Of a stretch of 64,000 nucleotides of DNA, positions 6,155 through 56,295 are shown in pieces. How positions within the stretch are numbered: the stretch's first letter is position 1; the number at the start of each line of letters is the position of its first letter. Below the pieces are notes generated by a model that had not been told where the DNA came from, searched no databases, and saw only the letters and a program-made list of their open reading frames with translations. The position numbers were made by a program, and so were the translations under genes. The DNA comes from an uncultured Spirochaetota bacterium (GTDB lineage Bacteria > Spirochaetota > Brevinematia > Brevinematales > JAOACQ01), in contig CAVYGN010000001.1 in the NCBI GenBank assembly GCA_963768055.1, positions 1,504,001 to 1,568,000 of the forward strand, in the 5' to 3' direction.

Positions 6155-6200
6155 TTGAAACCACCGATTTCACAGATTAAAATGATTATCTGTGAAATCT
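6155..6200. repeat. left arm of GxxExxY cassette 1 (CACAGAT, about 9-nt period)
   Basis: TTGAAACCACCGATTTCACAGAT; also folds locally as GATTTCACAGAT...ATCTGTGAAATC. Confidence 0.85.
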
Positions 6201-6212
6201 ACAAAAATTGTA

Positions 6213-6590
6213 TTAGTTTGCAAACCTTTTGAATTTTAATGAGCTTTCGCCAAAGTTAATTAATAAACCGATTTTCTTTTTGGAATTCTTCAAACTATTT
6301 ATAATTTGAGCTTCATCTGTTTTTGTAAGGCATCGCTCCGCTTTTATCTCCACTATAACTTCATGAAAAATTATAAAATCTGGAATGTAATACTTTCTCA
6401 ATTCAGAGTTTTTATAAAAAACTTTTAGCAATGGTTGCGCTTCATATGGTATTTTCCTCATTCTGAATTCTATTTCAAGACATTCCTGATAAACAGCTTC
6501 CAGAAAACCAGATCCCATTTCTTTATGGACTTCCATTACCGCGCCAATGATCTCATATGTTCGTGGATCGTTGCTTGTTTTTTTGACCAT
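6213..6590 (-). CDS. GxxExxY protein (PD-(D/E)XK nuclease superfamily)
   Basis: GSGFLEAVYQECL signature, IPDF..IVEIK, GLLINFG; AT-rich. Confidence 0.93.
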   Translation of the reverse strand: MVKKTSNDPRTYEIIGAVMEVHKEMGSGFLEAVYQECLEIEFRMRKIPYEAQPLLKVFYKNSELRKYYIPDFIIFHEVIVEIKAERCLTKTDEAQIINSLKNSKKKIGLLINFGESSLKFKRFAN

Positions 6591-6606
6591 GTTTATAATT
6601 ATAACA

Positions 6607-6663
6607 AGATTTCACTGATAATTCAAAATAATCTGTGATTATCTGTGGAATCTGTGGTTTCAA
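6607..6663. repeat. right arm of GxxExxY cassette 1
   Basis: ATCTGTG x3; 6641-6663 is the reverse complement of 6155-6177 at 21/23. Confidence 0.85.
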
Positions 6664-6698
6664 CCCGCGTTAAACGGTTTGTAAAGTAGATAATTCCG

Positions 6699-7502
6699 TT
6701 AAATAAAAAAAAACGTGGATATCAACAGGCAGTCCAGTCCGATAAAAATAAAATCTCCGGTTTTTAAGCGGAATTTCCATGGTGGAAGATAACTGCCGTT
6801 AAAACCCCTGCATTCCATCGCGTAATATGTCAATTCAGCCATTTCTTTGGATTTCAGGAACAACCCGCCCATCAGGTTTGAAAGCGACTGGTGTTTTTTG
6901 TCGTTTTTCCCGACAGACCTGAGCCGGAGCGCATAAAGCATATTTATTGAAAATTCCCCTAGAATAAAAATGTATTTTATAGTAATATCGAACACTAATA
7001 TGAAAACATCGGGGAGCTTTATAACTTTCATCGAATGAGTGATGTGGCTCCATTTAGTTGAATTTGCCAGGATATTTACAGCGGTAAGACTTCCGGTGAT
7101 TTTTAAAAACAGTATAGCGCAGTTGGAAAAATTTCCGGCGATCGCCGACGGAAGAAGGATAAGCGCCGAAAATAATCCGGATGTTAAAATCACGAAAGCC
7201 GTTCTTTTAATATCCTCCAGTTCAAGCATTCCCAGCGCCAGGAGTATATAAGCGTCGGAAAGCAATACGAATTGAATGGAGAAAGATAACGACAGAAATA
7301 TTATGAACATAAAAGTAAAAATGAATTTTATGGTCGCATTGAGCCTGTAAATTATCCCGTTTTCCGGTTTCCCCGCCCAGCGGATCCCCGAAAGCATGCC
7401 GAGAACATTGAGTATGCTTTTATCGATAAACGCGTCGCTGTCTCTCTGAAGCCCGAATTCATCTTTCTTCATCAGCCAGTCAGTCACTTTTCCTCCGGAC
7501 AT
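6699..7502 (-). CDS. cbiQ: ECF transporter transmembrane T component (CbiQ/NikQ)
   Basis: Hydrophobic protein with ALRLR and YYAMECRGF motifs; lies between cbiM and cbiO. Confidence 0.88.
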   Translation of the reverse strand: MSGGKVTDWLMKKDEFGLQRDSDAFIDKSILNVLGMLSGIRWAGKPENGIIYRLNATIKFIFTFMFIIFLSLSFSIQFVLLSDAYILLALGMLELEDIKRTAFVILTSGLFSALILLPSAIAGNFSNCAILFLKITGSLTAVNILANSTKWSHITHSMKVIKLPDVFILVFDITIKYIFILGEFSINMLYALRLRSVGKNDKKHQSLSNLMGGLFLKSKEMAELTYYAMECRGFNGSYLPPWKFRLKTGDFIFIGLDCLLISTFFFI

Positions 7503-8464
7503 TTCCTGCCGATAAAACCCGAGATCGCCTTGAAGATAATCAGAATGGCCGCAGTTCCGGCGATTGCGGAAATAACATACCCTGCTATCGTATTTTTAAG
7601 ATTAAAAATATTGTAATCCGTTAAGGGCGCCCTAAATTTAAATCCGCTCAGCATTCCTTCCGGGATATAACCCGTCAGTCTTTTAAGTTCATCCATAGGC
7701 CATTCGCCCCATGCCGTTCCTGAAAATAAAACCCCCAGTGGCGTTAAAACAGCCAGGACTCCCAAAAGCAGGTATAGGGGGCTGAAAATTTTGTTATCGC
7801 CGTCATGGATAATTTCCGGCGATACGCGGCGTATAAAGGCGATGACCCCGGCCGTCACCGTACCCTCGATAAAACCTGCTATTAGGTGGGCGATAAGCAT
7901 TGCGGGTATTGAGACACCAAGAGGATACGGACAGTAGAGCGGATGACCTGCCGGATCGAAAAATAACAAAGGCTGAATGCCGAACTCTACCGCGGTAAAG
8001 AAAGCTGCCAGGTTGATGGAAATGTACCCCGCGATAAAAGCCCCGGCGTATCCGTCAGGATCCCTCTTTATGAATTTCTTTATTAAATTGTAAATGAAAT
8101 AACCGGCAAAAGGTATGACAAAAGCCATATTGAAACAATTGGCGCCGAAAGCCAGAATACCGCCGTCGCCGAATAAAAGCGCCTGGATAAGAAGTGCCGT
8201 AGATACCGCTATTACCGCAGCGTACGGGCCCAGCAGAATTGCTACAAGGGTTGCACCGACGGCGTGCGCCGTAGTCCCGCCCGGAACAGGCACGTTGAAC
8301 ATCATAATGAGAAAGGAAAACGCCGCGGAGATGCCCAGGAGGGGCACCCTCTTCTCGGTCAGTTCTTTTTTTACCTTTTTTACCGACACGGTCCAAATCG
8401 GGATCATTATTGCGCCCATTACCGCGCATGTCTGGGGACTCAGATAATTGTCGGGAATATGCAT
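7484..8464 (-). CDS. cbiM: ECF nickel transporter substrate component NikM/CbiM fused to a C-terminal NikN-like domain
   Basis: N-terminal MHIPDNYLSP metal-binding motif, GGTTAHAVG, QALLFGDGG, C-terminal AWGEW...APLTDY. Confidence 0.92.
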   Translation of the reverse strand: MHIPDNYLSPQTCAVMGAIMIPIWTVSVKKVKKELTEKRVPLLGISAAFSFLIMMFNVPVPGGTTAHAVGATLVAILLGPYAAVIAVSTALLIQALLFGDGGILAFGANCFNMAFVIPFAGYFIYNLIKKFIKRDPDGYAGAFIAGYISINLAAFFTAVEFGIQPLLFFDPAGHPLYCPYPLGVSIPAMLIAHLIAGFIEGTVTAGVIAFIRRVSPEIIHDGDNKIFSPLYLLLGVLAVLTPLGVLFSGTAWGEWPMDELKRLTGYIPEGMLSGFKFRAPLTDYNIFNLKNTIAGYVISAIAGTAAILIIFKAISGFIGRKCPEEK

Positions 8465-8649
8465 TTGCCGTCCTTAAAAACCAAGAATTATAGATCAGAT
8501 TATAAAAATAGACAAAATTTGGGGCTTAAAAACGGGGACTGATGTGGTTCACCGCAGAGGCGCGGTGAAGTTCCCCTTCCAATCTTCAATAATTTTACAA
8601 ATACAATGTTTGTATATATAATCATATATAATTATATTGGAGAAACAAT

Positions 8650-8895
8650 ATGAATACTAGTACTGTTAATATCTCTTTTCAAAAAGAATTACTTAGGCAG
8701 ATTGATAATATAGCTAAGGCTGAAGCCAGAACAAGATCGGAATTGATTCGTGAAGCTGCAAGAATGTATATAGAAAGGAAGAAAAGGCTGGATAAAATGT
8801 TTGCCTTCGGAGACTTCCAGCTGAAGAATAGTAATATTAAAGAAGACCAGCTGGATAATGAAATTCATAAATATAGAAAGTTGAAAAGAAAATGA
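8650..8895 (+). CDS. CopG/ribbon-helix-helix antitoxin
   Basis: VNISFQKELLRQID...RSELIREAAR; overlaps the downstream PIN gene by 4 bp. Confidence 0.82.
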   Translation: MNTSTVNISFQKELLRQIDNIAKAEARTRSELIREAARMYIERKKRLDKMFAFGDFQLKNSNIKEDQLDNEIHKYRKLKRK

Positions 8896-9296
8896 AATCG
8901 GTCAAGGTTGTCCTGGACACCAATGTTATTATATCCGCTATAATATTCGGCGGTAAACCGAGACAACTGATTTATATGATTCACGAAATGAAATTTGAGG
9001 CTTATTTTTCAAAAGATATAATCGACGAGGTATTGGAGATTCTTGAAATGAAATTTGATTATCCAAAAAATAAGCTGATTACAGTTGAGAATGAGCTTAC
9101 ATCAATGGGGGAATTGGTGGAGCCAGGCGTTAAATTGTCAGTTATAAAAGAAGACCCCGATGATGATAAAATAATTGAATGTGCTGTTGCGGCAGAAGCT
9201 GATTATATTGTTTCCGGCGACAAGCATCTTCTTTCTTTTGAAAAATATGGTAATATTGAAATTTTGAAAACCGCTGACTTTTTGGAATTATTTTAG
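8892..9296 (+). CDS. PIN-family putative toxin (VapC-like)
   Basis: VVLDTNVIISA, DPDDDKIIECA, IVSGDKHLL. Confidence 0.92.
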   Translation: MKSVKVVLDTNVIISAIIFGGKPRQLIYMIHEMKFEAYFSKDIIDEVLEILEMKFDYPKNKLITVENELTSMGELVEPGVKLSVIKEDPDDDKIIECAVAAEADYIVSGDKHLLSFEKYGNIEILKTADFLELF

Positions 9297-9443
9297 GAAA
9301 TTATGATGGTTTTATTCCATTAGATATTGAGCGGACGGGCTTTTATGAAATGTTTATCGTGTTCTACCGCCCCCAGCGGTTTTGCGGTGAAACCCCGAAT
9401 ATGCTATAATATAGCGGAATCGAATCTCACAAAGCAGGTATCT

Positions 9444-10256
9444 ATGACATTGCAGGATAAATACAAAAACCTTAAATCCATAATAAAATCGTACGGCAGA
9501 GCCGCGGTTGCTTTCTCCGGCGGGGTCGACAGCTCTTTTTTGAGCAGGGCATGTTTCGATATTTTGGGCAGCAATTCGGCGGCTATAACCATCGTATCGA
9601 TAATGAACCCTAAAAGCGAGATCGACCGGTCCCACGAAATAGCCGCCCTGATCGGAATTCCCCATTATCTCCTTTATGAGGAAACTATTGAAGACGAAAT
9701 ACTGCGTAACCCTCCCGACAGGTGCTATCATTGTAAAAAGATGGAATTCTCTAAAATAATACAAAAGGCTTCCGGTCTTAACATCGGTACAGTCGTTGAC
9801 GGATCGAATTTCGACGACCTTTCGGATTACAGGCCCGGAATGCGGGCTCTGAAAGAGCTGGGGGTCAAAAGCCCTCTCAGGGAAGCGGGACTATCGAAAA
9901 AAGAGATCCGTGAATTGTCGAGGAATTCAGGTTTACCGACATGGGATAAACCGTCTTTCGCCTGCCTTGCTTCAAGGATCCCATATGAAGAAAGGATAAC
10001 AAAAGAAAAACTGCTCCGTGTCGACAGGTCGGAAGAATACCTGAGGAAAATCGGTTTTATTCAATTCAGGGTTAGAAGCCATGGAGATCTGGCCAGGATC
10101 GAAGTCAGCCCTGAAGAAAGGCCTAAAATGCTCGATTTAAAAATAATGGATGAAATTTCGTCCGTTTTAAAATCATTCGGATTTATCTATGTGTCCCTGG
10201 ACCTCGAAGGATATAAAACCGGAAGTATGAACCGCTTGCTGGAAGGGCGCTTCTAA
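9444..10256 (+). CDS. larE: ATP-dependent sulfur transferase LarE
   Basis: PP-loop AFSGGVDS, RCYHCK, DYRPG, SFACLASRIPYG-like segment; start moved to ATG 9444 (MTLQDKY). Confidence 0.93.
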   Translation: MTLQDKYKNLKSIIKSYGRAAVAFSGGVDSSFLSRACFDILGSNSAAITIVSIMNPKSEIDRSHEIAALIGIPHYLLYEETIEDEILRNPPDRCYHCKKMEFSKIIQKASGLNIGTVVDGSNFDDLSDYRPGMRALKELGVKSPLREAGLSKKEIRELSRNSGLPTWDKPSFACLASRIPYEERITKEKLLRVDRSEEYLRKIGFIQFRVRSHGDLARIEVSPEERPKMLDLKIMDEISSVLKSFGFIYVSLDLEGYKTGSMNRLLEGRF

Positions 10257-10355
10257 TAACCGCCTTTCTAAGGCGGATAGGTAGCGCCCATAGGGCGGTT
10301 TCATTATGATTAGAACATCTTATATTAATAATAAGCTTAGTTTTTGGAACCACCC
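10245..10355. mobile_element. MITE copy M1
   Basis: GGGCGCTTCTAATAAC...TTTTGGAACCACCC; internal similarity to 44189-44314 and 17870-18106. Confidence 0.8.
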
Positions 10356-10359
10356 TGAG

Positions 10360-11805
10360 TCATATTACGGGGAGGTTTGTCTTTCCCATCAGGTAAAGGT
10401 CAATAAAATGCGCGGCCTTGCGTCCCTCTGAAATGGCCCACACTATAAGGGATTGGCCCCTCCTCATATCCCCGGCGCAGAAAACCGGCTCCCTGCTTGT
10501 CATAAAATCAGTCCCCGTCAGGACATTACCCCTCTCATCGCATTTAATCTTGAGAACATCGATAAGGCCTTTATGAACAGGGCCTGTAAATCCTAATGCC
10601 AGCAATACCAGGTCGGCGTCTATCGTAAAGCCGCTGCCGCTTATTTCTTTCATAACCGGCAGGCCCTTTGCGTCATTATGGCGAAGCTCAACCCTTACAC
10701 ATGACAGCCGGCTTACACGGCCCCCTCTTCCGATAAATTTCTTTGTCGAAACCGACCAGTCCCTTTGACCACCCTCTTCGTGGCTTGAGGAAGTTTTTAA
10801 GATCATAGGGTATAAGGGCCAGGGATACCTTTCTGTCCTTTGTTCAGGGGGCTGAGGCAACAGTTCTATCTGGACAACGCAGGAGGCGCCCTGCCTGTGA
10901 GCGGTGCCTACACAGTCCGATCCCGTGTCGCCTCCGCCGATTACCACTACACGCTTGTCCCGGGCGTCTATAAGTTCCCCATTTGCTATCTCTTCTCCGG
11001 CGACCCTCCTGTTAGACTGGCTGAGGTAATCCATGGCAAAATGAATACCCTTCAGTTCCCTTCCCTCGATTTTTAAGTCTCTGGGTTCCCTTGCCCCTCC
11101 GGTAAGGCAGACGGCGTCAAATTCATTCAACAGGCGTTCAGCTTTTAAATCGATGCCTGCGTTAACTCCGGTTGTAAAATTAATCCCCTCTTTGATGAAT
11201 AGATCGACCCGCCTGTCCAATATGCTTTTTTCAAGTTTAAAATCGGGAATACCATAACGAAGCAAACCCCCGATTTTATCATCTTTTTCGTAAACCGTTA
11301 CATTATGGCCGGCTTTATTAAGCTGGGCGGCGCACGAAAGACCGGCAGGTCCGGAGCCTATAACGGCGATTTTTTCCCCTGTCCTTTTTAGAGGGGGTTC
11401 CGGCTTGATAAATCCAGTTTCAAATGCATGCTCGATAATATCAAGCTCATTTTCCCTTATCGATACAGGATCATCGTTAATGCCCAGAACGCATGAATAT
11501 TCACATGGCGAGGGGCATAGCCTCCCGGTTATTTCCGGGAGATTGTTGCAGGCCTGTAAAAGCTCCACCGCCCTTGTCCATTGTTTTTTATATGCTGCGT
11601 CATTCCAATCCGGGATAGAGCTGCCGACCGGACAGCTCCAATGACAAAAAGGAGTGCCGCAATCCATACAGCGTGACGCCTGTTCTCCTGAGATTTCCGA
11701 GTCTCTGGGAAGGCTTACTTCATTGTAATCATGAATTCGCTCACAAACCGGCCTGTATTCCGTTTTTTTTCTTCCTATCTTTAAAAAACCGTTAGTGTCA
11801 CCCAT
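10360..11805 (-). CDS. gltD: glutamate synthase small subunit
   Basis: RCMDCGTPFC, GRLCPSPCE, GSGPAGL, IGGGDTGSDC, GDMRRGQSLIVWAI. Confidence 0.97.
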   Translation of the reverse strand: MGDTNGFLKIGRKKTEYRPVCERIHDYNEVSLPRDSEISGEQASRCMDCGTPFCHWSCPVGSSIPDWNDAAYKKQWTRAVELLQACNNLPEITGRLCPSPCEYSCVLGINDDPVSIRENELDIIEHAFETGFIKPEPPLKRTGEKIAVIGSGPAGLSCAAQLNKAGHNVTVYEKDDKIGGLLRYGIPDFKLEKSILDRRVDLFIKEGINFTTGVNAGIDLKAERLLNEFDAVCLTGGAREPRDLKIEGRELKGIHFAMDYLSQSNRRVAGEEIANGELIDARDKRVVVIGGGDTGSDCVGTAHRQGASCVVQIELLPQPPEQRTERYPWPLYPMILKTSSSHEEGGQRDWSVSTKKFIGRGGRVSRLSCVRVELRHNDAKGLPVMKEISGSGFTIDADLVLLALGFTGPVHKGLIDVLKIKCDERGNVLTGTDFMTSREPVFCAGDMRRGQSLIVWAISEGRKAAHFIDLYLMGKTNLPVI

Positions 11806-14800
11806 CGTAGTCCTCCATAAGGTTTAACTTTCGGGTCATTTCTTTCTCCTTGAGAAGCTTTTTATATTCGAGGGGCATAACTTTTACAAATTTTTGCTTA
11901 ATTTCCCTCAAAGCATCAAATATATTTTTTGCGTATATACTCCCGGTGTATTTAAAATGATTATGGACCAATTTACTGATTATTTTGAGGTCTTCTTCGG
12001 TAATTTCAATCAGTTCCACCATATCCGTATTGCATTTATCTTTAAAATCGCCTTCCGGGTCATAGACATAAGCTACACCGCCGGACATACCCGCGCCGAA
12101 ATTTCTGCCTGTCTTCCCCAGTACGACAACTTTACCGCCTGTCATATATTCGCAGGCATGATCTCCTACACCCTCGACTACAGCGTTTATGCCGGAATTT
12201 CTTATGCAGAATCTTTCGCCTGCTATTCCAGCAACATAAGCCTCGCCGCTGATCGCGCCGTAGAAAGCGGTGTTGCCGATGATAATATTTTCTTCGGATC
12301 TGTAATCGCTTTTCTTATCAGGGTAAATTATGATCTTTCCCCCTGAAATGCCCTTTCCGACATAATCGTTTGCCAGGCCCTCAAGTTCGAACGTAACCCC
12401 GCCGGCAAGCCAGGAACCGAAGCTCTGTCCTGCCGTTCCTTTGAAATGATAAACTATGGTATCCTGAGACAGGCCCTTTTCTCCGTATATTCCGCAGATG
12501 GCGCCGGAAAGCATGGCTCCTGTTGTCCTGTCGGAATTCCTGATTGTAAATTCTTCTCTTACAGGTTCAGAATGTTTTAAAGCTTTCTTAGCATACCTGA
12601 TCAAATTATGGTCAAGAACCTCCCCAAGGCCATGGTCCTGGAGAGAGGTCTGGAATAATCCTGTCGATCCGCTTACTTCAGGCTTATACAGAATCCTTGA
12701 AAAATCGATATTTTTAGTTTTTACGGTTAATATTTCCCTGTTTATGTCCAGAAGTTCCGTTTTCCCGATCAGTCCGTCTATCGATCTTATTCCGAGGCCC
12801 GCCATTATCTCGCGAGTCTCATGAGCGACAAATTTCAAATAGTTCATTATATATTCGGGCCGTCCGCCGAATCTTTTCCTCAGCTTTTCGTCCTGGGTCG
12901 CCACCCCAACTGAACAAGTATTGAGATTACAATGCCTGAGCATTACACATCCTATGGATACCAGAATCGCCGTACCGAACCCGTATTCCTCCGCTCCAAG
13001 GATGGCGGCAATAACGACGTCCCTCCCTGTCCTGATCTGGCCGTCGGTCTGGAGCCTTACCCGGCTTCGCAGATTATGGAGCACAAGGGTCTGGTGGGTT
13101 TCAGAGATCCCGAGCTCCCATGGAAGACCGGCGTTCCGGATGGAACTCCATGGTGAGGCCCCGGTCCCTCCGTCCCCGCCCGATATCAATATCATATCGG
13201 CATGGCCCTTTGCCACGCCGGCGGCAATTGTACCTACGCCGATTTCAGAGACAAGCTTAACGCTTATCCTCGCCATAGGGTTTGTGTTCTTCAGGTCGAA
13301 AATAAGCTGGGCCAGATCCTCAATGGAATAAATGTCATGATGGGGCGGCGGGGATATTAAAGTAACACCGGGTGTCGTATACCTTGTTTTTGCAATATTA
13401 ATACTGACCTTATGCCCGGGGAGTTGCCCTCCTTCCCCCGGTTTCGCTCCCTGTGCTATTTTTATCTGGATTTCATCCGCATTAGAAAGATAATTTGTAG
13501 TAACGCCGAACCTTCCGGATGCGACCTGCTTTATAGAACTCCTCATGCTGGCTCCTCCGGGTAGGGGCTTAAAACGGGCAGGGTCTTCCCCGCCTTCTCC
13601 TGTATTTGATTTCGCACCTAAGCTGTTCATAGCTAAGGCAATAGTCTCATGGGCTTCTTTTGAAAGCGATCCGAAGCTCATAGCCCCTGAAGCGAATCTT
13701 TTTATTATACTCTCTTCGCTTTCCACCTCTTCAACAGGAATTGAAAGGCCAGGTCTGAATTTTAATAAAGAACGTAATGTAACAGGATTTTTCGACTGGT
13801 CGTTTATAAGTTTAGAAAATTCCTTGAACCTTTCATAATCTCCCTTTCTTACTGAATCCTGAAGAGCCGAGATACTTTCAGGGTTCCAGAGATGGACTTC
13901 CCCGTCTCTCTTCCATTGATATATTCCCCCGGTATTCAGAATTTCATTTTTAAATTCTTCCCTGAATGGAAAAGCATCCCTGTGCCTTGACATCGCTTCA
14001 TCTGCAGCAATATCGAAGCCAATTCCCCCGATCCTCGATACCGTTCCGTGGAAGCATTTTTCGATTATCTCGTCCGACAGGCCGAGGGCTTCATAAATCC
14101 CGGCCCCCCTGTAACTCTGTAGAGTCGAGATCCCCATTTTGGACAGGATTTTTAGAATTCCCTTGTCGACTGATTTTATATAATTGTGAATGGCTTCCGC
14201 GGCGTTAATATTCAAATCCCTTTCTTTAACCATGAACTTTATAGCCTCAAATGCCATATACGGGTTGATACAGTCGGCGCCGAATGCGAGGAGAAGCGCA
14301 AAATGATTGACCTCTCTTACTTCCCCGCTCTCGATAATAAAGCTTGCGGCCGATCTTTTTCCGGATGCCGTTAAAAATTGCCGAATATACCCTAGAGCGA
14401 GAAGCGACGGGATCGCCGCATAATCATGCCCTATTCCCCTGTCGCTTAAAATGAAATAAAAATAGCCTTCGCCTATCAAATCCAGGATTTCCCTGCAGGC
14501 ATTATCGAGAGCTTTCATAAAGCCGCCGATCGATTTTGTTCCGAATAGTAAAGATATTCTTCTTGATTTCCTCCCCGGCAAAGAGAGTCCGGCTAATAGC
14601 TCAAGCTGTTCATCGGTCAGAACCGGGCTGTCAACCCTTATCCTTGCACAGGTATCGGGCGACTCATCAAGAATATTATTTTTAGGCCCCAGATAACTTT
14701 CAAGGCTCATTACTATTTCCTCACGGATAGGATCGATGGCCGGATTGGTGACCTGGGCAAACAATTGCTTGAAATAATTATAAAAAAGCTGGTTTTTCCT

Positions 14801-28254: not shown

Positions 28255-28321
28255 TCACCGCAAAGGCGCCAAGGACGCAAAGGGCTGTCCTGAGGCAGCG
28301 AAGGAGACAGAGTACGCAAAG
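28255..28321. repeat. left arm of GxxExxY cassette 2 (CGCAAAG units)
   Basis: TCACCGCAAAGGCGCCAAGGACGCAAAG...ACGCAAAG. Confidence 0.85.
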
Positions 28322-28323
28322 AA

Positions 28324-28707
28324 TTATAATTGATTTACAATTCTTTTTATCCCGTCTTTCAATAAAATTGAATTAAAGTTTATCAATAAACCCAATTTTA
28401 ATCCAGTTAATTTTAAATATGTTAATAATTGCGCTTCATGTATCAATTCGATTTGATTAACTGATTTTAATTCAATAATTACTTTTTTTTCAACTACTAA
28501 ATCCAATCTATAAACACAGTCTAACAAAATTCCTTTATAATTTACTGGTAATGATTTTTGTCTTTCAAACTTTAAATTTAATTTATTTAATTCATAACAT
28601 AAGCATTCTTCATAAGCTGATTCTAAAAGACCCGGCCCAATTCTTTTATGAACTTCAATCGCTGCCCCAATAATTTTATTGGATAATTCATCTTCAATTT
28701 TTTTCAT
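28324..28707 (-). CDS. GxxExxY protein (PD-(D/E)XK nuclease superfamily)
   Basis: GPGLLESAYEECL, RLDLVVE..IIELK, AQLLTYLK, GLLINFN; very AT-rich. Confidence 0.95.
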   Translation of the reverse strand: MKKIEDELSNKIIGAAIEVHKRIGPGLLESAYEECLCYELNKLNLKFERQKSLPVNYKGILLDCVYRLDLVVEKKVIIELKSVNQIELIHEAQLLTYLKLTGLKLGLLINFNSILLKDGIKRIVNQL

Positions 28708-28718: not shown

Positions 28719-28774
28719 CTTTGCATTTCTTTGCGTCCTTCGATATCTTTGCGACCTTTGCGACTTTGCGTTGA
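28719..28774. repeat. right arm of GxxExxY cassette 2
   Basis: CTTTGC x5; 28747-28774 is the reverse complement of 28255-28282 at 24/28. Confidence 0.87.
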
Positions 28775-40770: not shown

Positions 40771-40843
40771 TCCCCTGTAGCTCAGTTGGCAGAGCAGGTG
40801 ACTGTTAATCACCGGGCCGTAGGTTCGAGCCCTACCGGGGGAG
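40771..40843 (+). tRNA. tRNA-Asn(GTT); CCA not encoded
   Basis: Cloverleaf: TCCCCTG/CGGGGGA acceptor stem, GGTGA-CTGTTAA-TCACC anticodon arm, GTTCGAG T loop. Confidence 0.96.
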
Positions 40844-46775: not shown

Positions 46776-46782
46776 TTTCTTT

Positions 46783-48860: not shown

Positions 48861-49415
48861 ATGAGAGTAAGGAAATTCCTGATCAGGCTTCTTATCATAT
48901 TTATTTTTCTCGCGGTCATCAGCGCGTCATTGTATTTCATTCAGGTTTTTTTTCATCCCTTCGATTCCCAGATAAACAGCCTTATCGACTGGATCAATTA
49001 TATAAACAAGGCGGGTTCTTATTCGCTTATCGCCGGCATCACGCTGGGTTCGATCGTTTTTATCATTGCTATCGCATTGTTCCCCCTCCTTCTCAGTGGA
49101 ATAAACAGGAAGAATTACTGGTCAAGCATCCAGAAGGGCCTGCTCTCCTCATTTGTTTTCTTTATTTCACAGATCTTTTATAAATACGCGGAAAAATTGG
49201 GGGAAATTTATTTCTATCTCGCTCTTTTCGCGATTATCGTAACCACGCTGATACTTGTAGAAATAATAACGCTTTCCATGAAAGAGGGCAAAGAGGAGGA
49301 GGTCCGCACCGATATTATTGCCGCCATTTCTTCAGGTCTTATTTTCGGGGTCCTGATCAGGCTTATTGAACTGGGATTACACGAGGTTAAAAACCTTCTT
49401 TCTTTTATGCCATAA
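48861..49415 (+). CDS. membrane hypothetical protein
   Basis: 184-aa ORF with about 5 TM segments. Confidence 0.65.
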   Translation: MRVRKFLIRLLIIFIFLAVISASLYFIQVFFHPFDSQINSLIDWINYINKAGSYSLIAGITLGSIVFIIAIALFPLLLSGINRKNYWSSIQKGLLSSFVFFISQIFYKYAEKLGEIYFYLALFAIIVTTLILVEIITLSMKEGKEEEVRTDIIAAISSGLIFGVLIRLIELGLHEVKNLLSFMP

Positions 49416-50675
49416 AAAAGAATCGAGCATCAATACGGCGAGGACCGCATAACCGACCGCTCCGATAACCAGGCTTACCTGGACAAGGTCTTTGTGGAAT
49501 AGGACAATACCTGAAACCTGAAGCAGGACGCCGGCAAAAATGGCCGCCGAATAAAACAGTTTCTGCGAGATAATATAATAATTGATGAGAAAACTTATAA
49601 GGGCGTAGGGCAGAAACATAAAGGCGTATATAGGTAGAATGTTTTCCATCCCTATAAATTTACCCCCGAATATTCCCACCGAAAGGAACCGGCTTATAAA
49701 AGCAAGGAAAGCGCAGAACGATATTAGTACAAGAAGTAGAAACAAAAAAGCCCTCAAATTGGACCTGGTCATATTTTCCCTGTCCTTCGACATGAATGGA
49801 AGCATAACAAACGACAAGGAATTTGCAATGAAAAACGACGCTATTCCAAACTGTTTGACCATCGAATATGTCCCAACCAGCTCTTCAAGATAATGCCTTA
49901 CAAGGATCGTATCGAGATAAATTATCAACTGGAAAGCGAAAACCGACAAAAAACCCGTAAGAAACGACCTCATTATTTTGCCCATATCGATAAAATCGGG
50001 GGTTGTTTCATCCGGGCCTCTCAAGAGCCCGCTCCTTTTAACAAATAAATAAAAATCTGCGGTCAGGTAGGCGGCGCTGATAATAAAAGACATAAGGACG
50101 CCTCCGAGAGCGCCGAGATAGCTTGAAGTCAGGTATACAAGCCCTACCCCGAGAGCGAATTTGCTTATCACGGCTGTGAGCTTGTATATAATATACTTTT
50201 TATAGTCTTCCCTTGACTGGATCAGGCTTTGAAAAGGGAAGGTAAAGAGATTCATGGCAGCCAGGGCAAAGAAAATTAAAAAGGGCCGGCTGTCGCCAAG
50301 ATGATAATAATCTTTTAAAAAAGGAAGGCCCAGAGCAAGTATACCTGTAATCAAAATTATCAGTATGAAGATTATTAAAAAAACTTTTTTAAGATAGTCC
50401 CTCAGGGCTCCTCCTTTTTTTTCATGGATCAGCCTCGATATATCGGCGCTGAAGACCATCTGCAGTGCCAGGCCGGGTATGCTTACGATCATTAAAAGAG
50501 AAATGAGGGGAACATAGATGCCGTACTGGGCCGGTTCAAGAATTTTCCCTAAAAAAACGGTATATAAAAAGTTTATCGCCCCTTCAGCCGAGGTAACTAT
50601 CGAAATATAAGTCGAGCCTAAAAATATCCTGTTTGAAATTATTTTTTTTACATTACTGCGGATAAAATCAGCCAT
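49377..50675 (-). CDS. Wzx-like oligosaccharide flippase
   Basis: About 12 TM segments, KILEPAQYG, LDTILVRHY. Confidence 0.78.
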   Translation of the reverse strand: MADFIRSNVKKIISNRIFLGSTYISIVTSAEGAINFLYTVFLGKILEPAQYGIYVPLISLLMIVSIPGLALQMVFSADISRLIHEKKGGALRDYLKKVFLIIFILIILITGILALGLPFLKDYYHLGDSRPFLIFFALAAMNLFTFPFQSLIQSREDYKKYIIYKLTAVISKFALGVGLVYLTSSYLGALGGVLMSFIISAAYLTADFYLFVKRSGLLRGPDETTPDFIDMGKIMRSFLTGFLSVFAFQLIIYLDTILVRHYLEELVGTYSMVKQFGIASFFIANSLSFVMLPFMSKDRENMTRSNLRAFLFLLLVLISFCAFLAFISRFLSVGIFGGKFIGMENILPIYAFMFLPYALISFLINYYIISQKLFYSAAIFAGVLLQVSGIVLFHKDLVQVSLVIGAVGYAVLAVLMLDSFLWHKRKKVFNLV

Positions 50676-52816
50676 CAGTCTATCACCTCTATACTCGAAA
50701 TAAAATTACCCATGAGGTTCTGCACGCCGGTCCTGTCAAACCTGACCGTAAGCAGTTTATCCGAAGCGAAAGTGACTTTTCCCCTGCCGAAAGTCCTGTG
50801 AAAGACAATGTCGCCGGCCTTTATTTCACTTATGTCCGATACCGGCCTTCCATGGACGGCATCTTCTCTTTTAAAACGTTCTCCCGCTCTGACGAACGAT
50901 CCGCCTTCCTGGACCTGGACATATTCGCCGGGAATGTCCCTCAGGAACGGCGAAGGCAGGCAGTTCTCGACATTTCCATATTTCATACGCCTTTCGGAAT
51001 ACGACAAATAAAGCCTCTCCCTTGCCCTTGTTATGCCCACATAAAACAGCCTTCTCTCCTCATTCAATTCGGACGCCGAATAGAGGCTCGAAGTATGGGG
51101 AATAAGGCCGGCATTAACGCCGCTTATAAATACAATTTTGAATTCCAGTCCTTTGGCGTTATGTATTGTCATAAGAGACACATAATCCCTGCCGTCGTCG
51201 CTTTCCAGTTCGTCGGAACCGGCCTGCAGGGTAATATCGTTAATGAAATCCTGGATCAGGGCATCGGGATTGGAATTCTCATATTCCTTTACAGAATTAA
51301 TAAGTTCTTCGACGTTTGCCCAGCGGTCAAGGCCGTCTTCATCAAAGTTGAGAATGTATTCCCTGTATCCGATGGAATCTATCAGTACCTTGACGAAATT
51401 CATGGGCGTCATTTTACCTGACGATTCATTTAACTCCTTAAGTATATTCCCCAATTCCCTCATCGGCGCGCCGGGGGCAAACTGTAAACCTTCCGGGCCC
51501 AGCAGTATTTCAATAAAAGACATATTAAGACTGACGGAGGCTTTTATTATCTTATCCAGAGTCGCTTCCCCGATCTTCCTTTTCGGTACATTTACTATCC
51601 TCTCGAGGGAAGCGCTGTCGTATGGATTTATTATTAGTTTTATGTATGAGAGAATATCCTTTACTTCCTTCCTGGCATAAAATTTCTGTCCGCCGAATAC
51701 TTTATAAGGGATATTATGGAAAAGCAGCGATTCCTCGAGAAGCCTTGACTGGGCGTTGGTCCGGTAAAATACCGCTATATCCCTGTAATCATGATCCGCC
51801 AGGAGCTTATCTATAGCGTCCACGATCCTGCCGGCCTCTTCCTTATCGGTAATGGCCTCGATAATGGTTATCTTTTCTCCGGGTTTACTGCTGGTCCATA
51901 ATTTTTTATCTATCCGCCCCTCGATCTTTTCTACGACCGCATGCGCGGTCGAGAGGATCACACCGGTCGACCTGTAATTCTGTTCAAGCAGTATGATCCT
52001 TGCCTTGTAATGGTCCTTGAAATCGTTAATATTTTCGACATTGGCACCCCTCCAGCTGTATATCGACTGGTCGTCGTCGCCGACTGCGCAGATATTATCG
52101 GTCGGAGGACAGAAGAGTTTTATAAGCTCATATTGAGCCTCGTTTGTGTCCTGGAACTCATCTATCATGACATATTGCCACAGCGATTGATAAACCGCCC
52201 TTATCTTTTCATTTTCCAGGAATATTTTTATCGGAAGGGAGATCAGATCCGGAAAATCAACTGCCTTATTTCTCCTGAGAATTTTTTCATAATCATTGAA
52301 AACTATAGCCGCAGCCTCGTCTATGGCGGTAACCGCCCTGTTTTTAAACCCGGCGGGGGTAATAAGCGAATCCTTGAGGCTCGATATCCTGTCGGCTATG
52401 CCTGCGGGATTATATGTTTTCGCATCTATCCCCCGGTCTTTCATAATGCTCCTGACAAGGCTCTTCGAATCCGAGGAGTCGTATATGACAAAATCCCTGG
52501 GATACCCTACAGCATCGGGGTTTCTCCGGAGGATCATCACTCCAGTGGAATGAAACGTCCTGACCCATGAATTCGAAGCGTCGATGCCGGAAAGGGCTGA
52601 AATCCTTTCCTTCATCTCCCCGGCCGCTTTATTTGTAAAGGTCACTGCGAGAATATTATGCATAGTTATTTTTTTCATCTTTAAAAGATAGGCGAACCTG
52701 TGAGTTATGACGCGGGTTTTACCGCTCCCCGCCCCCGCAAGTACGAGGAGAGGGCCCTCGGTATGCTCGACGGCTTCCCTTTGCTTTTCATTTAAAGAAT
52801 CAAGGATTAAATCCAT
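50675..52816 (-). CDS. pcrA: ATP-dependent DNA helicase PcrA/UvrD
   Basis: LNEKQREAV, AGAGSGKT, DEFQDTN, VGDDDQSIY, QNYRS, TIHNAKGLEF, EERRLFYVGITRA. Confidence 0.96.
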   Translation of the reverse strand: MDLILDSLNEKQREAVEHTEGPLLVLAGAGSGKTRVITHRFAYLLKMKKITMHNILAVTFTNKAAGEMKERISALSGIDASNSWVRTFHSTGVMILRRNPDAVGYPRDFVIYDSSDSKSLVRSIMKDRGIDAKTYNPAGIADRISSLKDSLITPAGFKNRAVTAIDEAAAIVFNDYEKILRRNKAVDFPDLISLPIKIFLENEKIRAVYQSLWQYVMIDEFQDTNEAQYELIKLFCPPTDNICAVGDDDQSIYSWRGANVENINDFKDHYKARIILLEQNYRSTGVILSTAHAVVEKIEGRIDKKLWTSSKPGEKITIIEAITDKEEAGRIVDAIDKLLADHDYRDIAVFYRTNAQSRLLEESLLFHNIPYKVFGGQKFYARKEVKDILSYIKLIINPYDSASLERIVNVPKRKIGEATLDKIIKASVSLNMSFIEILLGPEGLQFAPGAPMRELGNILKELNESSGKMTPMNFVKVLIDSIGYREYILNFDEDGLDRWANVEELINSVKEYENSNPDALIQDFINDITLQAGSDELESDDGRDYVSLMTIHNAKGLEFKIVFISGVNAGLIPHTSSLYSASELNEERRLFYVGITRARERLYLSYSERRMKYGNVENCLPSPFLRDIPGEYVQVQEGGSFVRAGERFKREDAVHGRPVSDISEIKAGDIVFHRTFGRGKVTFASDKLLTVRFDRTGVQNLMGNFISSIEVID

Positions 52817-52864
52817 AAGGTAGACCCCAAACGAAGTGATAGTCAAATCGGGAGATATTATAAA

Positions 52865-52947
52865 GGGCAGTTCTAATAACTCAAGAATATCACCCTTTGC
52901 GCAAAAAATTTGCTATAACTTTAATACATGCCATATGGGCGCTTCCA
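52865..52947. mobile_element. MITE copy M7 (degenerate right end)
   Basis: GGGCAGTTCTAATAACTCAAGAATATCACCC...ATGGGCGCTTCC, colinear with 35641-35724. Confidence 0.7.
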
Positions 52948-53000
52948 GACGGGGATAAATTGGAGAAATTTTGTTTTCTCTTATAAAACATAACCTGGGA

Positions 53001-54854
53001 TTATAAACCGGATTTCCTGAATTCCAGCAGATAAGCGGTGCTGTCATAAGGTAAATAGGCAGGGTGTATCCGGCTATAATTTACAAAATCAAAGCCAAGT
53101 GAATGGTAACTATTTGTCAAGCCCGGTAAATCTTTTTCAATGTCGGGTTTCTCATAAATTTCAAAAATTCTTTGATTGGTAATTTTATCGAAGAATTTCT
53201 GGAATTGAATACGGTACAACGGTGTTGGGGAGTTATAATCAAACCTGAATATCGGGACATTATCTTTTAATAGTGCTGAACAGCCTGTCCAACTGCGTGT
53301 TATTATCCACATATCAATCTTTTTAATTAGTTTAATTTCATCCTTTCCAGTTACAGTCCTGTCTTTTCCGATCATAGAAATATTTGAGATATAACCGGGA
53401 ATATCCTTGTAAAAAGGTTGCCGCCATCCCCAATCACGGCCCTTGTAAATGTAAAGGCCGTAGCAGAATAACACCTGCATTGAAAACAGAAAAAGAATCA
53501 TTATTCCCGGAGGCCGGGTATTTTTTTTATCCGGGGCCGCAAGCCATTCCAGGCAAATAAGCGACAGGAATATTCCACTTATGACCTCAATAAATAAACC
53601 ATAGCGGATATATCCGGTAGTAAATCCCCATAAAAATCCTGTGCAAAGGATTAAATAGGATAAGATTTTTATGATTTTGCCAGAAATGTCTCTTTTCAGT
53701 ATCACGGCAACAGAAAGAATCAGAGCAGTACAATATCCAAGGAACATCCTTCCACTGTAGACATTCAATTCCGAGAGCCTTTTTGGTACAATGAAACAGT
53801 ATGCGGGCCAGAACAGATATTCAAATATATTTTTTGCTGGCCCCCATCTCATGTCTTTATCCGGGGAAGATGAAATTAGACAATACGGCGACTGGAATAA
53901 TTTATTAAAGAAAGGAAAAACAGGGTTACCCGTGTTTATATAATTAAATATAATATAAATTGATACTGGTAAAAAAAATAAAATTGAGCTAACAAGAAGG
54001 GTTTTCAAATTTATGCCTTTCCGGCTCCTGAACAGGAAGAAACCCAGAAGAATTAAAATAAAAACAACAGCAGTGAATTTCATGGACAAGGCAAAGCCTG
54101 AAAGTATGGCGCAATAATAAAACCATTTTGGGCTGTCATCTTCCCGGCATATTATCAGTTTAAAGACTTCCAATAATAAAGGTATAAATAAGAGGTCTAC
54201 GAGATATGTTGCGAAATTAATCAAAATAAATTCAGTGGAAATAACCAATAAAGCAAAAATACCCAATAAAAAGTCGCTAATTTTAATATTTTTCGATCTG
54301 GCATAGAGTAATAAAAAATCTTTTACCTGTTTATAAATCAGGATAACTACCAAAAAATTTAGTAAAGTTCCGGCACGGTATCCCAGAACTTCCCTGAATA
54401 GATAAAAAAGCCGGTCTGACAGAGGAAATAAAAAGGAGTAGAGCGAAACCGGGAAGAAATGATAAGTAAAGTTACTTTTGAATTGAAAATTCTGGAAAAA
54501 AAGATGGTAGTTGCGGGTATCAAAATTGGTATCCGGGTATGGTAAACGCATTAAGAATAAAGTAAGTAAAGAGAAAAACGCCAGATAATCGATTAAATCA
54601 AATCTGTCCGCTTCAATTTTTATTATATTTATTAAAATTAAAATCAGGATTAAACTGTAAATAATTATGAGTAAAACGGGTATAAAAGGATTTGTTAGAA
54701 AGAAAGAAGCCATAAAGTGAAAAAGGTCAATGCTGAATACAAAAAGGATATAAAAAAGATAAATTAACAAAAAAAGCGGGATTGGTATTCTATTTTGATT
54801 ATCGTTAATCCGGATTATTCTGTAAACAGACTTTAAAGAACTCATTATATTCAC
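53001..54854 (-). CDS. polytopic membrane protein, possible GT-C fold glycosyltransferase
   Basis: Many TM segments, FDTRNYH loop, YLVDL, MKFT, TGNPVFPFFN; AT-rich. Confidence 0.6.
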   Translation of the reverse strand: MNIMSSLKSVYRIIRINDNQNRIPIPLFLLIYLFYILFVFSIDLFHFMASFFLTNPFIPVLLIIIYSLILILILINIIKIEADRFDLIDYLAFFSLLTLFLMRLPYPDTNFDTRNYHLFFQNFQFKSNFTYHFFPVSLYSFLFPLSDRLFYLFREVLGYRAGTLLNFLVVILIYKQVKDFLLLYARSKNIKISDFLLGIFALLVISTEFILINFATYLVDLLFIPLLLEVFKLIICREDDSPKWFYYCAILSGFALSMKFTAVVFILILLGFFLFRSRKGINLKTLLVSSILFFLPVSIYIIFNYINTGNPVFPFFNKLFQSPYCLISSSPDKDMRWGPAKNIFEYLFWPAYCFIVPKRLSELNVYSGRMFLGYCTALILSVAVILKRDISGKIIKILSYLILCTGFLWGFTTGYIRYGLFIEVISGIFLSLICLEWLAAPDKKNTRPPGIMILFLFSMQVLFCYGLYIYKGRDWGWRQPFYKDIPGYISNISMIGKDRTVTGKDEIKLIKKIDMWIITRSWTGCSALLKDNVPIFRFDYNSPTPLYRIQFQKFFDKITNQRIFEIYEKPDIEKDLPGLTNSYHSLGFDFVNYSRIHPAYLPYDSTAYLLEFRKSGL

Positions 54855-54959
54855 TACATTAACCTCTGGAGTTTAAAATAATTTTAAAGTAAGATTATGT
54901 TTATCACAAACTAATAAATGTAAAAAATATGGTGAAAAATCTTCAATGAATAAGACCGT

Positions 54960-55200
54960 GTCCTATTCCTCCAAATTAAAGACAATATGCAACACTATTT
55001 GAAGAAAATTTTTTACGCACCTTATGAAGAAAACGTAAGAACTGCCATCGAAAAACAGCTATTAAAAGTCCACAGTCCATAGTCACAAGTCATCAGGTCT
55101 TATTCCCACCGAATTAAAGACATTATATGCAATTCTATATGAAGTTAATTTTTTTATGCGCATTATGAAGTAAGCGTAAGAACTGCCGCTGAAAAACGGC
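54960..55200. repeat. imperfect ~100-bp direct repeat pair separated by a heptamer array
   Basis: 54960-55059 vs 55097-55200 share AATTAAAGACA, TTATGAAG, CGTAAGAACTGCC and GAAAAAC; AGTCNNN x4 at 55067-55094. Confidence 0.75.
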
Positions 55201-55456
55201 ATAGCAAACGCTAATCAGGAATCGATTATTGTAATTAATCGATTCTTATAAATAATAAAATTTCTAAAATAAAAAAGCATTCCATCAGCGTTTGCTTGCC
55301 GTCTTGAAGCGATGCAGTTCAAGTTTTCGAATAGCGAGATAAAAATTGACTTCATCCGGAAGAATGTTGTTTGATCGTCCCTTGATAATTTCCCCCCGAT
55401 TTATTAAATTATCATAAAAGCACCGATAAGATAAAATATAATATACGGAGGGAGAG

Positions 55457-55768
55457 ATGAGGGAGTTCATAAAAGACGAAGACGGTATCCATTGTCAATA
55501 TACAGTCAAGCATGGCGATAAACAGGATTCCTATTCCTGCACTGTCGAGAGTTTAAGCGAAAGGGCGGTGGATTTTTTAGCCGAAGAGGACGAGGGCTTC
55601 AAGGCCGGCCCGAAGGGCGGCGTCAGGCCCGGGATGACGATCCATGTAGAACTCTCGGAATTATCCCTGCCATGCAAGGTGACCTATGTTGAAACGGGAA
55701 GGGTCGGCGCGAATTTCATCGATTTAACGCCTGTGCAGAAAGAAGAGTTGAAAAAAATCGCGTTTTAA
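55457..55768 (+). CDS. small PilZ-like domain protein
   Basis: ESLSERAV (D-x-S-x-x-G-like) and C-terminal GRVGANFIDLT; GGAGGGAG RBS. Confidence 0.55.
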   Translation: MREFIKDEDGIHCQYTVKHGDKQDSYSCTVESLSERAVDFLAEEDEGFKAGPKGGVRPGMTIHVELSELSLPCKVTYVETGRVGANFIDLTPVQKEELKKIAF

Positions 55769-55774
55769 GAATGT

Positions 55775-55819
55775 TTAACCACGGATGGACACAGATAAAC
55801 ACAGATTATTCAGATTATT
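55775..55819. repeat. left arm of GxxExxY cassette 3 (10-nt period ACACRGATNN)
   Basis: TTAACCACGGATGGACACAGATAAACACAGATTATTCAGATT. Confidence 0.87.
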
Positions 55820-55831
55820 TCATAACTAATA

Positions 55832-56206
55832 TCAGTTCATCATACGCTTAATTTCAATTTTTTGTTTTCCAAAATTAATAATCAAACCTACACGTTTATT
55901 ACTTGCTTTTAAATAATTTAATAATTGAGCTTGATGATTCTCATCTATATTCTTCGCTACTTTTAATTCCACAATAACTTCATCTTCTACATAAATATCT
56001 GCATAATATTCCCCAACCTGTAAACTATCATAATAAACATTCAAAGGTTTTTGTTGAATAGCCGATAAGCCGGTCTTTTTTAACTCGATGCACATTGCAT
56101 TTTCATAGACTTTTTCTAAGAAACCTGTGCCCAATTTGTTGGAAACATTATATGCAGCACCAATAATCTTTTCAGTTATTAAATTTAATTCTTCAGTTTT
56201 TTTCAT
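55832..56206 (-). CDS. GxxExxY protein (PD-(D/E)XK nuclease superfamily)
   Basis: GTGFLEKVYENAM, YADIYVE..IVELK, AQLLNYLK, GLIINFG; start moved to ATG 56206. Confidence 0.95.
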   Translation of the reverse strand: MKKTEELNLITEKIIGAAYNVSNKLGTGFLEKVYENAMCIELKKTGLSAIQQKPLNVYYDSLQVGEYYADIYVEDEVIVELKVAKNIDENHQAQLLNYLKASNKRVGLIINFGKQKIEIKRMMN

Positions 56207-56263
56207 TTTAATCCGGTTATTAGATTTAATTATACAGATAACAACAGAAATAAGCATTTTCCC

Positions 56264-56295
56264 ATCTGTGTGCATCCGTGTTTATCTGTGGTTAA
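56264..56295. repeat. right arm of GxxExxY cassette 3
   Basis: ATCTGTGTGCATCCGTGTTTATCTGTGGTTAA is the reverse complement of 55775-55806 at 26/32. Confidence 0.87.

Follow-up and report, generated by a model that had tools for sequence, protein, structure and literature searches.

How do three small nuclease genes come to lie, each between a pair of inverted repeat arrays, in the spacers between host genes? The question is raised by a stretch of 64,000 nucleotides from an uncultured Spirochaetota bacterium (contig CAVYGN010000001.1, positions 1,504,001 to 1,568,000; hereafter the window). An original prediction, made from the letters alone, had described three GxxExxY genes here and proposed that each forms a minimal mobile unit together with a cognate repeat. 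The cassettes, about 510-520 bp in size, AT-rich and bounded by inverted arms of 7-nt words, have indeed been inserted into short spacers between genes, frequently within an operon, and the mobile-cassette reading is well supported. They belong to a family with both cargo-bearing and gene-less members, and GxxExxY is a recurrent element-borne protein across phyla. As an explanation of the whole, small selfish elements with ends of C-R-C-N-R-A-N word arrays, for which the GxxExxY nuclease would act as cognate reader and cutter, are preferred here, albeit tentatively and with a confidence that stays somewhat short of even.

All three genes (c1, c2 and c3) encode GxxExxY proteins of the PD-(D/E)XK family, as had been proposed. 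Their products match TIGR04256 over the full length (E-values of 1.3e-39, 2.4e-47 and 3.3e-43 for c1, c2 and c3; 135-160 bits at a cut-off of 35) as well as PF13366 (PDDEXK_3; E-values of 4e-37 to 1e-45, 127-155 bits at a cut-off of 22), the only Pfam family found on the three proteins. With a GC content of 0.32, 0.24 and 0.28, respectively, the genes are poorer in GC than their 3-kb flanks (0.43, 0.43 and 0.40). The cassettes are intergenic, with the gene on the minus strand and co-oriented with the upstream host gene, and hold no transposase. A repeat search reproduced the figures that had been given for the arms of cassette 1 (21 of 23 positions or 91% complementary; CACAGAT at a 9-nt period) and cassette 2 (24 of 28 or 86%; CGCAAAG at an 8-9-nt period). 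For cassette 3, the predicted 26 of 32 came close: its arms of ACACRGAT units (word CACRGAT, 10-nt period) are complementary at 30 of 39 positions (77%), with a core that reaches 90%. Two descriptions had to be extended. The count of three genes holds for the window, but the genome (3.69 Mb, 2 contigs) contains five, all in the orientation of their upstream host gene, and c4 and c5 on contig 2 are likewise armed (CACNGAT and CACRGAGG words). In cassette 1, the inner arms stand as described, while a further, outer inverted repeat had been overlooked. The core AACGGAAYTRTCTACTT of its left half has no second site in the genome, and a possible TTAAATAA duplication is seen by eye outside this repeat. 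In relatives, the intergenic flanks have diverged too far for an alignment.

Evidence for insertion comes from flank searches in related genomes, which yielded empty sites for all five cassettes, i. e. the flanking genes are adjacent there without a cassette. Cassette 1 interrupts a cbiM-cbiQ-cbiO operon between cbiQ and cbiO; its site is empty in G003 and G004 (same genus) and in G006 and G008 (same family), and cbiQ and cbiO are directly adjacent in these four relatives. The site of cassette 2 is empty in G001-G004, with a gap of 13-51 bp compared to 604-630 bp in the query, that of cassette 3 in G003 (gap of 9 bp), that of c4 in G001, G002 and G003, and that of c5 in G001, G002, G003 and G004. 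Related cassettes at other sites were also encountered, as expected for a mobile unit. In G004, genes resembling c1 and c4 are located between CACAGAT arms at two other sites (C5, C6), one of these copies being 83% identical to c4 with host flanks at 66-74%, and G009 carries a gene resembling c2 (81%) with CGCAAAG-type arms. Several copies in relatives are interrupted by stop codons. The filled site of cassette 1 is furthermore present in metagenome contigs (DNA) from two studies, while no RNA run is among the sequencing runs listed for the locus. In two runs of one of them, a different left flank is joined at 6115, where the outer repeat begins, which gives a weak hint of a second site of cassette 1. 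A 99-nt contig of high depth is a gene-less relative of the arms rather than a product of excision.

The arms are by no means confined to these genes. A search of the genome with a profile built from arm seeds (threshold E<0.05) returned 57 CACAGAT-type arms, which form 17 inverted pairs spanning 65-3013 bp and leave 23 arms unpaired. On the level of words, 39 arrays of at least three C-R-C-N-R-A-N words were found compared to 0 in a block-shuffled copy, and each of the 39 is built of the words of the five resident nucleases if one letter change is tolerated. CACNGAT x3 arrays number 24, compared to 0 for the reversed control pattern. These counts bear on the view that the arms arose by chance or serve host regulation as palindromes, such as terminators or operators, next to ordinary, vertically inherited genes. 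The intergenic position of the cassettes would suit this view, palindromes being common between genes. However, it is already contradicted by the absence of arrays from the shuffled genome, by the reversed-pattern controls across genomes (0-7 matches compared to 16-422), by the empty sites and by the recurrence of the same design in many phyla. Moreover, scans of the cassettes found no terminator-like sites. This view can hence hardly be correct, and the observation of armed cassettes is confirmed as real and statistically solid.

What did not hold is the idea that the arms are each gene's own, since the same arm families enclose at least 10 other cargoes. A GxxExxY gene is found inside merely three of the 17 CACAGAT-type pairs. 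Others contain small membrane proteins (two of them mutually homologous, one beginning in a Hol_Tox-like manner), a gene resembling D12-class methylases, an AAA_15/AAA_21 ATPase together with a partner of 258 aa, or proteins without family match. Gene-less pairs of 65, 176, 278 and 341 bp exist as well, the shortest being a hairpin at C1:923934-923998. CGCAAAG arms similarly bound a gene-less 105-bp hairpin (C1:468648-468753) and two more AT-rich cargoes, so that the arm-only copies that had been anticipated are present for both words. For the CACGGAG word of the fifth gene, one further array occurs in the genome. Next to unpaired arms lie a DUF4160 and DUF2442 pair, ankyrin-repeat genes, a metallophosphatase and a tyrosine integrase. 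The two ends of the CACAGAT family differ in design: the 'A' end consists of three words followed by TTTTGGAA and a hairpin arm, the 'B' end of words followed by TCTGTGAAATCCATATAAAATTA. Inward-facing promoter-like letters (-35, 17 nt, -10) are conserved in all six aligned 'A' ends despite differing cargoes, and at least one cargo is opposite in orientation to its 'A' and 'B' ends. A promoter scan of the cassettes returned a strong site in cassette 1 only, with promoter-like counts overall not above those of shuffled sequences.

Several further features of the arms deserve mention. One arm sub-family carries a small hairpin (TAAGYCCTGTAAGGRT) between the first and second word (C1:448986, 468515, 1084598, 1305630, 477327 and 107794). 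At C1:974734, 975855 and 978921, three near-identical right arms lie within 4 kb, each followed by GCCCGGGCTGCAGCAGC, and a DUF4160 and DUF2442 gene pair is placed between two of them. A hairpin-like stretch of about 200 nt at C1:924644-924843 (positions 1644-1843 of locus L142) has sub-threshold matches to plant microRNA precursors and is unrelated to the arms.

The variety of cargo invites a different account, in which the arms are the ends of a non-autonomous element that resembles miniature inverted-repeat transposable elements (MITEs) or mobile insertion cassettes and is moved by an enzyme encoded outside the cassettes. A transposase or recombinase, either of the host or a distant one, could be the mover, as could a replication or repair process that acts on hairpins. 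GxxExxY would merely be the most frequent passenger, such as a nuclease involved in defence, addiction or anti-defence. Most arm-bounded elements in this genome do have other cargo or none, and some of it, namely the ATPase with its partner gene and the methylase-like gene, is defence-like. The tyrosine integrase mentioned above (C1:1382121-1383167; Arm-DNA-bind_5, SAM_5 and Phage_integrase domains) immediately follows a 'B'-type arm on its inner side; the segment (C1:1382121-1383533) is AT-rich and also holds a 78-aa open reading frame (ORF). Yet, it is single-copy and no arm was found on its far side, and its role as mobiliser is not supported. An element of the insertion sequence (IS) IS21 type was considered as mobiliser and rejected. 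Among its 10 copies of 100% identity, one (C1:109744-112333; istA of 513 aa, istB of 248 aa) is located within the arm pair C1:109469-112481, but both arms are situated beyond its ends, and a search with a 3.2-kb query gave no arm matches at the other 9 copies. This copy simply inserted itself into an arm-bounded element. A candidate mobiliser was thus not found. An outside enzyme would also have to read all of the several word types that coexist in the genome, each matching a resident nuclease subtype. Weighed together, the passenger account is possible, though rather unlikely.

The reach of the arrays was surveyed in 41 related genomes, 12 with a GxxExxY match over the cut-off and 29 without, which as relatives are not independent samples. 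In 11 of the 12, general word arrays are clearly above the control (16-422 matches compared to 0-6), and 25 of the genomes without match contain at most four arrays each. G004, a member of the same genus, has 422 word-array matches (control 6) and nine GxxExxY genes, an approximately tenfold expansion relative to the genome of the window. CACNGAT x3 arrays were found exclusively in G000 (the genome of the window, 24), G004 (33), G022 (7) and G006 (1), with 0 matches to the reversed control everywhere. The association between arrays and GxxExxY across relatives is strong, if not absolute.

Generality beyond these genomes was addressed with 80 loci that encode relatives of the proteins, drawn from Planctomycetota, Bacteroidota, Verrucomicrobiota, Acidobacteriota, Chloroflexota, Nitrospinota, one archaeon and others, 79 of which have usable flanks. 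An inverted repeat spans the gene at z>4 versus shuffles in 54 of these 79, with offset controls at background. A stricter word detector, applied to 92 loci, found arrays on both sides of the gene in 37, on one side in 34 and on neither in 21, compared to 2 of 175 in a control shifted by 420 bp. The words encountered elsewhere, such as CACGAAT, CGCGAAT, CGCAGAT, CACGAAG, CACGGAA and CACGAAA, share the common form C-R-C-N-R-A-N. GxxExxY is the one cargo that recurs with such arms across phyla, which speaks against its being an incidental passenger. At five loci from several phyla (L073, L102, L062, L115 and L080), the outermost word reads TTATCCAC or TTGTCCAC, and the end in the window AACCAC. 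The outermost words of these loci resemble the DnaA-box consensus (TTATCCACA), a likeness that may be coincidental.

Does the word go with the protein? On a FastTree phylogeny of 98 proteins (13 of 95 inner branches well supported), 38 word changes are required compared to 53-63 (mean 59) in 300 label shuffles, so that repeat type tracks protein phylogeny as had been proposed, although co-inheritance of gene and arms alone predicts the same. The word clades cut across phyla. On the level of single residues, 30 of 34 cases with G at word position 5 have Thr as residue 11, and T, G or A at position 7 goes with Met, Ile or Phe at residue 19, respectively; both patterns are suggestive. An action of the individual nuclease subtypes on their cognate words is plausible, though counter-evidence exists (see below).

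The original prediction had further envisaged that the arms could pair to a long stem, with the gene in its loop. Part of this stands: RNA folding places the arms as closing stems in the minimum-energy and centroid structures of cassettes 1-3 (z of -4.1, -3.3 and -4.1). However, partner arms are no more complementary to each other than non-partners. Among 16 CACAGAT-family pairs, partners align at a mean of 15.1 compared to 16.8 for non-partners (permutation p 0.99), and a selected pair-specific stem is therefore not indicated. Instead, the word is conserved: positions 4, 5 and 7 are A in 71 of 90, G in 90 of 90 and T in 88 of 90 words, while the two to three spacer letters are free and carry only 0.15-0.54 bits. 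Throughout the genome, the period of CACAGAT-type arrays is 9 nt in 44 and 10 nt in 16 cases. From these patterns we infer that the arrays are protein-binding words on one face of duplex DNA, and that the complementarity of the arms would follow from their inverted layout.

A stem around a small gene is nevertheless reminiscent of the intervening sequences (IVS) of 23S ribosomal RNA (rRNA), which are the closest published relatives of the cassettes. The example of Coxiella burnetii is described as a 428-nt selfish element with one ORF, whose terminal inverted repeats pair into a 28-bp stem that is cut by ribonuclease III (RNase III), and which contains three tandem GACAGAT heptamers in a strain-variable copy number (PMC4990558). 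Similarities to such IVS (S23p ORF; Coxiella, Leptospira) comprise a size of about 430-520 nt, a single small ORF, terminal inverted repeats by which this ORF is enclosed in a long stem (predicted in the case of the cassettes), tandem heptamers of variable copy number in the arms (GACAGAT and CACAGAT, respectively), and the view of a selfish element whose mode of moving is unknown. In contrast, the cassettes lie between protein-coding genes rather than in 23S rRNA helices, their ORF encodes a PD-(D/E)XK nuclease (PF13366) and not an S23p four-helix bundle, and their arms are shared by many other cargoes. A profile search found no four-helix-bundle gene (TIGR02436) in the genome of the window. 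In relatives, all five inspected four-helix-bundle genes of the S23p family lie between short-word arrays of other types, which are inverted in L177, L179 and L180 and partly direct-looking in L178. In L180 (G009:C5:221600-222400), the gene has GTCGAAA-word arms and is situated between tRNA-Ala and the 5' end of a 23S rRNA gene.

Conceivably, the arms could then act mainly as a transcript stem in the style of these IVS, with the cassette mRNA being excised or stabilised by RNase III or by an RNA-directed activity of the encoded nuclease, and with the words as a by-product of how the stem arose, for example by slippage. Besides the predicted folds and the Coxiella IVS, which combines the same heptamer design with an RNase III cut in the stem, this reading would accommodate the co-orientation of all five GxxExxY genes with the upstream host gene and the position of cassette 1, where expression of cbiO needs transcription through the cassette. 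The tRNA-splicing endonucleases also share the fold of the GxxExxY model (Z of 5.0-5.3). It is nonetheless improbable. Partner arms show no compensatory relation, the word letters are conserved far beyond the needs of pairing while the spacers are free, the 9-10-nt period suits one face of duplex DNA, and the 'A' end of the CACAGAT family has its own promoter-like site. Insertion at new sites would, in addition, be left unexplained.

As to the protein, residues G28, E31, Y34, D71, E81 and K83 are identical across the five paralogues. Over 80 sequences, no exchange is found at G26, E31, Y34, D71 and K83, while G28 and E81 are conserved to at least 90%. The ratio of nonsynonymous to synonymous substitution rates (dN/dS) is 0.08-0.10 among c1, c4 and the G004 copy (0.08 for c1 and its paralogue c4), with dS near saturation in two of the three pairs. 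These sequence comparisons indicate that GxxExxY is under purifying selection with retention of the D...ExK residues. An AlphaFold (AF2) model (mean predicted local distance difference test, pLDDT, of 93.2) shows a restriction-endonuclease-like fold with an alpha-beta-beta-beta-alpha-beta core, whose best neighbours are 3ijm (Z 7.8), Cas4 SSO0001 (Z 7.6), BpuSI, SwaI, BglII and Hjc. With middling Z values of at most 7.8, the likeness of the model to restriction enzymes, Cas4, Hjc and splicing endonucleases is confined to the common fold and indicates no specific subfamily. A sequence search returned no solved structure at E<=1. Plasmid records gave six matches, and tblastn found none in phage records.

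In the preferred explanation, each cassette would be a copy of a small selfish insertion-element family, whose ends are inverted arrays of 7-nt words about one helical turn (9-10 bp) apart. The arrays would serve as protein-binding sites on duplex DNA, with the base-paired stem not being primary. GxxExxY would be the cognate reader and cutter of the words, with its specificity residing in the N-terminal segment, and would drive the spread of its own cassette. By analogy, it may thus be the mobilising enzyme of its repeat as RAYT is for REP (see below). In trans, gene-less hairpins and cassettes of different cargo could also be spread by it, provided that they have the same word. Most likely, the spread would proceed by a cut at or between the arm arrays, followed by repair that copies the filled element in a homing-like manner; alternatively, cut-and-paste may be completed by host repair. 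Upon read-through from the host operon, the arms might fold into a long RNA stem like that of 23S rRNA intervening sequences, and RNase III could excise the cassette from the transcript via this stem, which would limit harm to the host.

A number of observations weigh against this explanation, and several of them favour the passenger account. Nucleases make up only a minority of the cargoes in the CACAGAT family. Arrays are above the control in four of the 29 relatives without GxxExxY match (G001 22, G008 33, G025 42, G012 10). Those of G001 and G008 are real on inspection, although eight of the 22 matches in G001 stem from one unrelated tandem repeat and about 13 are true; G025 is only 73% complete, and the 10 arrays of G012 are graded as perhaps true. 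The four-helix-bundle genes of relatives carry analogous word-array arms of quite different words, and the arm design hence does not require GxxExxY. PD-(D/E)XK enzymes hydrolyse DNA and are not known to join it, so that the GxxExxY enzyme alone cannot account for insertion. Both Pfam and a 2012 survey give the function of GxxExxY/PF13366 as 'Unknown', and the papers found to name the family do not deal with its function. The tracking of word and protein is, as mentioned, also expected from descent, and independent-pair tests of residue-word coupling had at most five supported pairs and were not significant. At the sites themselves, the flanks of relatives are only 66-78% identical, so that target-site duplications and exact junctions are not definable, and no metagenome contig was found that joins the flanks across cassette 1.

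A bolder version, which is rather doubtful at present, would regard GxxExxY proteins as word-reading endonucleases that, together with inverted arrays of the cognate word, constitute a cross-phylum class of mobile elements without need for a transposase. The words would be recognised on one face of the DNA, and a few N-terminal residues would set the specificity, residue 11 for letter 5 of the word and residue 19 for letter 7. Any DNA between two arrays might be copied, which would provide a platform for cassette shuffling, and the 23S rRNA intervening sequences would be a branch that landed in rRNA.

Among other known systems, the pairing of repetitive extragenic palindromic sequences (REPs), or their doublets (REPINs), with REP-associated tyrosine transposases (RAYTs) comes close in several respects. 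Both systems comprise an enzyme gene in one or few copies flanked by inverted copies of a short repeat, both have this repeat dispersed as gene-less inverted doublets, and in both the repeat type goes with the enzyme clade. They differ in the enzyme, GxxExxY having a PD-(D/E)XK fold while RAYT is an HUH/Y1 (IS200-like) transposase. REPs are moreover single imperfect palindromes instead of 7-nt word arrays at helical period, and REPINs lack cargo genes. MITEs and mobile insertion cassettes, which are IS-derived and have terminal inverted repeats but no transposase, share with the cassettes the inverted ends, the lack of an internal transposase, passenger genes, short gene-less forms and insertion polymorphism. 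However, the genome revealed no parent IS ending in such repeats, the only IS between arms being of the IS21 type, which was tested and excluded, and other IS families not having been surveyed. The cassette ends are, moreover, word arrays that vary by subfamily. Integron cassettes likewise are small, mostly single-gene units; their AT-rich cargo is diverse, and their recombination site (attC) is structured and forms an imperfect palindrome. In contrast to these, the cassettes described here are scattered singly over two contigs rather than arrayed beside an integrase, have inverted arms at both ends instead of one attC, and, where they belong to the CACAGAT family, carry their own promoter-like site. 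Only one integrase is located near an arm; it occurs in a single copy and belongs to the phage-integrase type, not to intI. Finally, homing endonuclease genes and nuclease-assisted transposon homing (PMC10690162) resemble the cassettes in that a selfish gene encodes a nuclease, putatively site-specific in the case of the cassettes, and could be spread when this nuclease cuts vacant copies and repair copies the gene in. Here, the sites are unrelated intergenic spacers rather than one conserved target, and the cassettes come with no intron, intein or guide RNA. A literature search found no description of GxxExxY cassettes, most subscription journals being outside its coverage. Seemingly, the cassettes belong to a much larger mobile cassette family that is built like the rRNA intervening sequences and has not been described.

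The coordinates of the cassettes are collected in Table 1. Cassette 2 is neighboured by a gene for a 392-aa protein and a STAS gene, cassette 3 by a PilZ gene and a phosphoglycerate mutase gene. An Rfam scan of the window found no family matching the arms and no rRNA; the sole match over the gathering score is one tRNA gene at 40771-40843. Upstream of the PilZ gene, at 55041-55383, about 300 nt of non-coding DNA have approximately 30 matches elsewhere in the genome, mostly at 70-77% identity with two short pieces at 90-94%, and constitute a dispersed repeat family separate from the arms.

Table 1. Features of the three GxxExxY cassettes and of the genes flanking cassette 1 (positions in the window).
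Feature	Position	Strand	Description
GxxExxY gene c1	6213-6590	-	125 aa; D71, E81 and K83 of the nuclease motif present
GxxExxY gene c2	28324-28707	-	127 aa; profile matches to TIGR04256 and PF13366
GxxExxY gene c3	55832-56206	-	124 aa; profile matches to TIGR04256 and PF13366
Cassette 1 paired arms	6155-6177 / 6641-6663		23 nt
Cassette 1 outer inverted repeat, left	6116-6149		pairs with 6676-6709; 34 nt, 76%; genome-unique
Cassette 1 outer inverted repeat, right	6676-6709		partner of 6116-6149
Cassette 1 gene-distal 'B' end	6155-6200		terminal TTGAAACCACCGAT-TTCACAGAT words, then local hairpin GATTTCACAGAT / ATCTGTGAAATC
Cassette 1 gene-proximal 'A' end	6607-6663		three CACAGAT words and subterminal hairpin arm
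Promoter-like TTGAAT-17-TATAAT (with TG)	6598-6626	-	within the gene-proximal end of cassette 1, facing the gene
Cassette 2 paired arms	28255-28282 / 28747-28774		28 nt
Cassette 2 left arm	28255-28323		TCACCGCAAAG-GCGCCAAG-GACGCAAAG; extra ACGCAAAG word at 28314
Cassette 2 right arm	28720-28774		CTTTGCG words, 8-9-nt period
Cassette 3 paired arms	55768-55806 / 56264-56302		39 nt
Cassette 3 arm core	55776-55796 / 56264-56284		21 nt
Cassette 3 left arm	55768-55810		TTAACCACGGAT-GGACACAGAT-AAACACAGAT, 10-nt period
Cassette 3 right arm	56234-56302		ATCTGTG / ATCCGTG words; inner direct copy ACAGATAACAACAGA at 56234-56248
Host cbiO-like ABC ATPase gene	5362-6096	-	parted from cbiQ by cassette 1
Host cbiQ-like gene	6699-7502	-	upstream of cassette 1

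Taken together, GxxExxY/PF13366, a very widespread family, is now tied to a defined DNA partner in the form of word arrays. To this are added insertion polymorphism, spread across phyla and a design shared with the rRNA intervening sequences, the origin of which has posed a question since about 1990. Annotation pipelines could accordingly mark the cassettes and the gene-less hairpins as mobile DNA. If the nuclease does read the words, this would amount to a new mode of DNA movement, by a nuclease and repeat arrays without a transposase, and to a simple protein-DNA recognition code for which natural variants are at hand. By means of the cassettes, small genes of accessory or defence-like nature would then also be dispersed to the spacers of operons.

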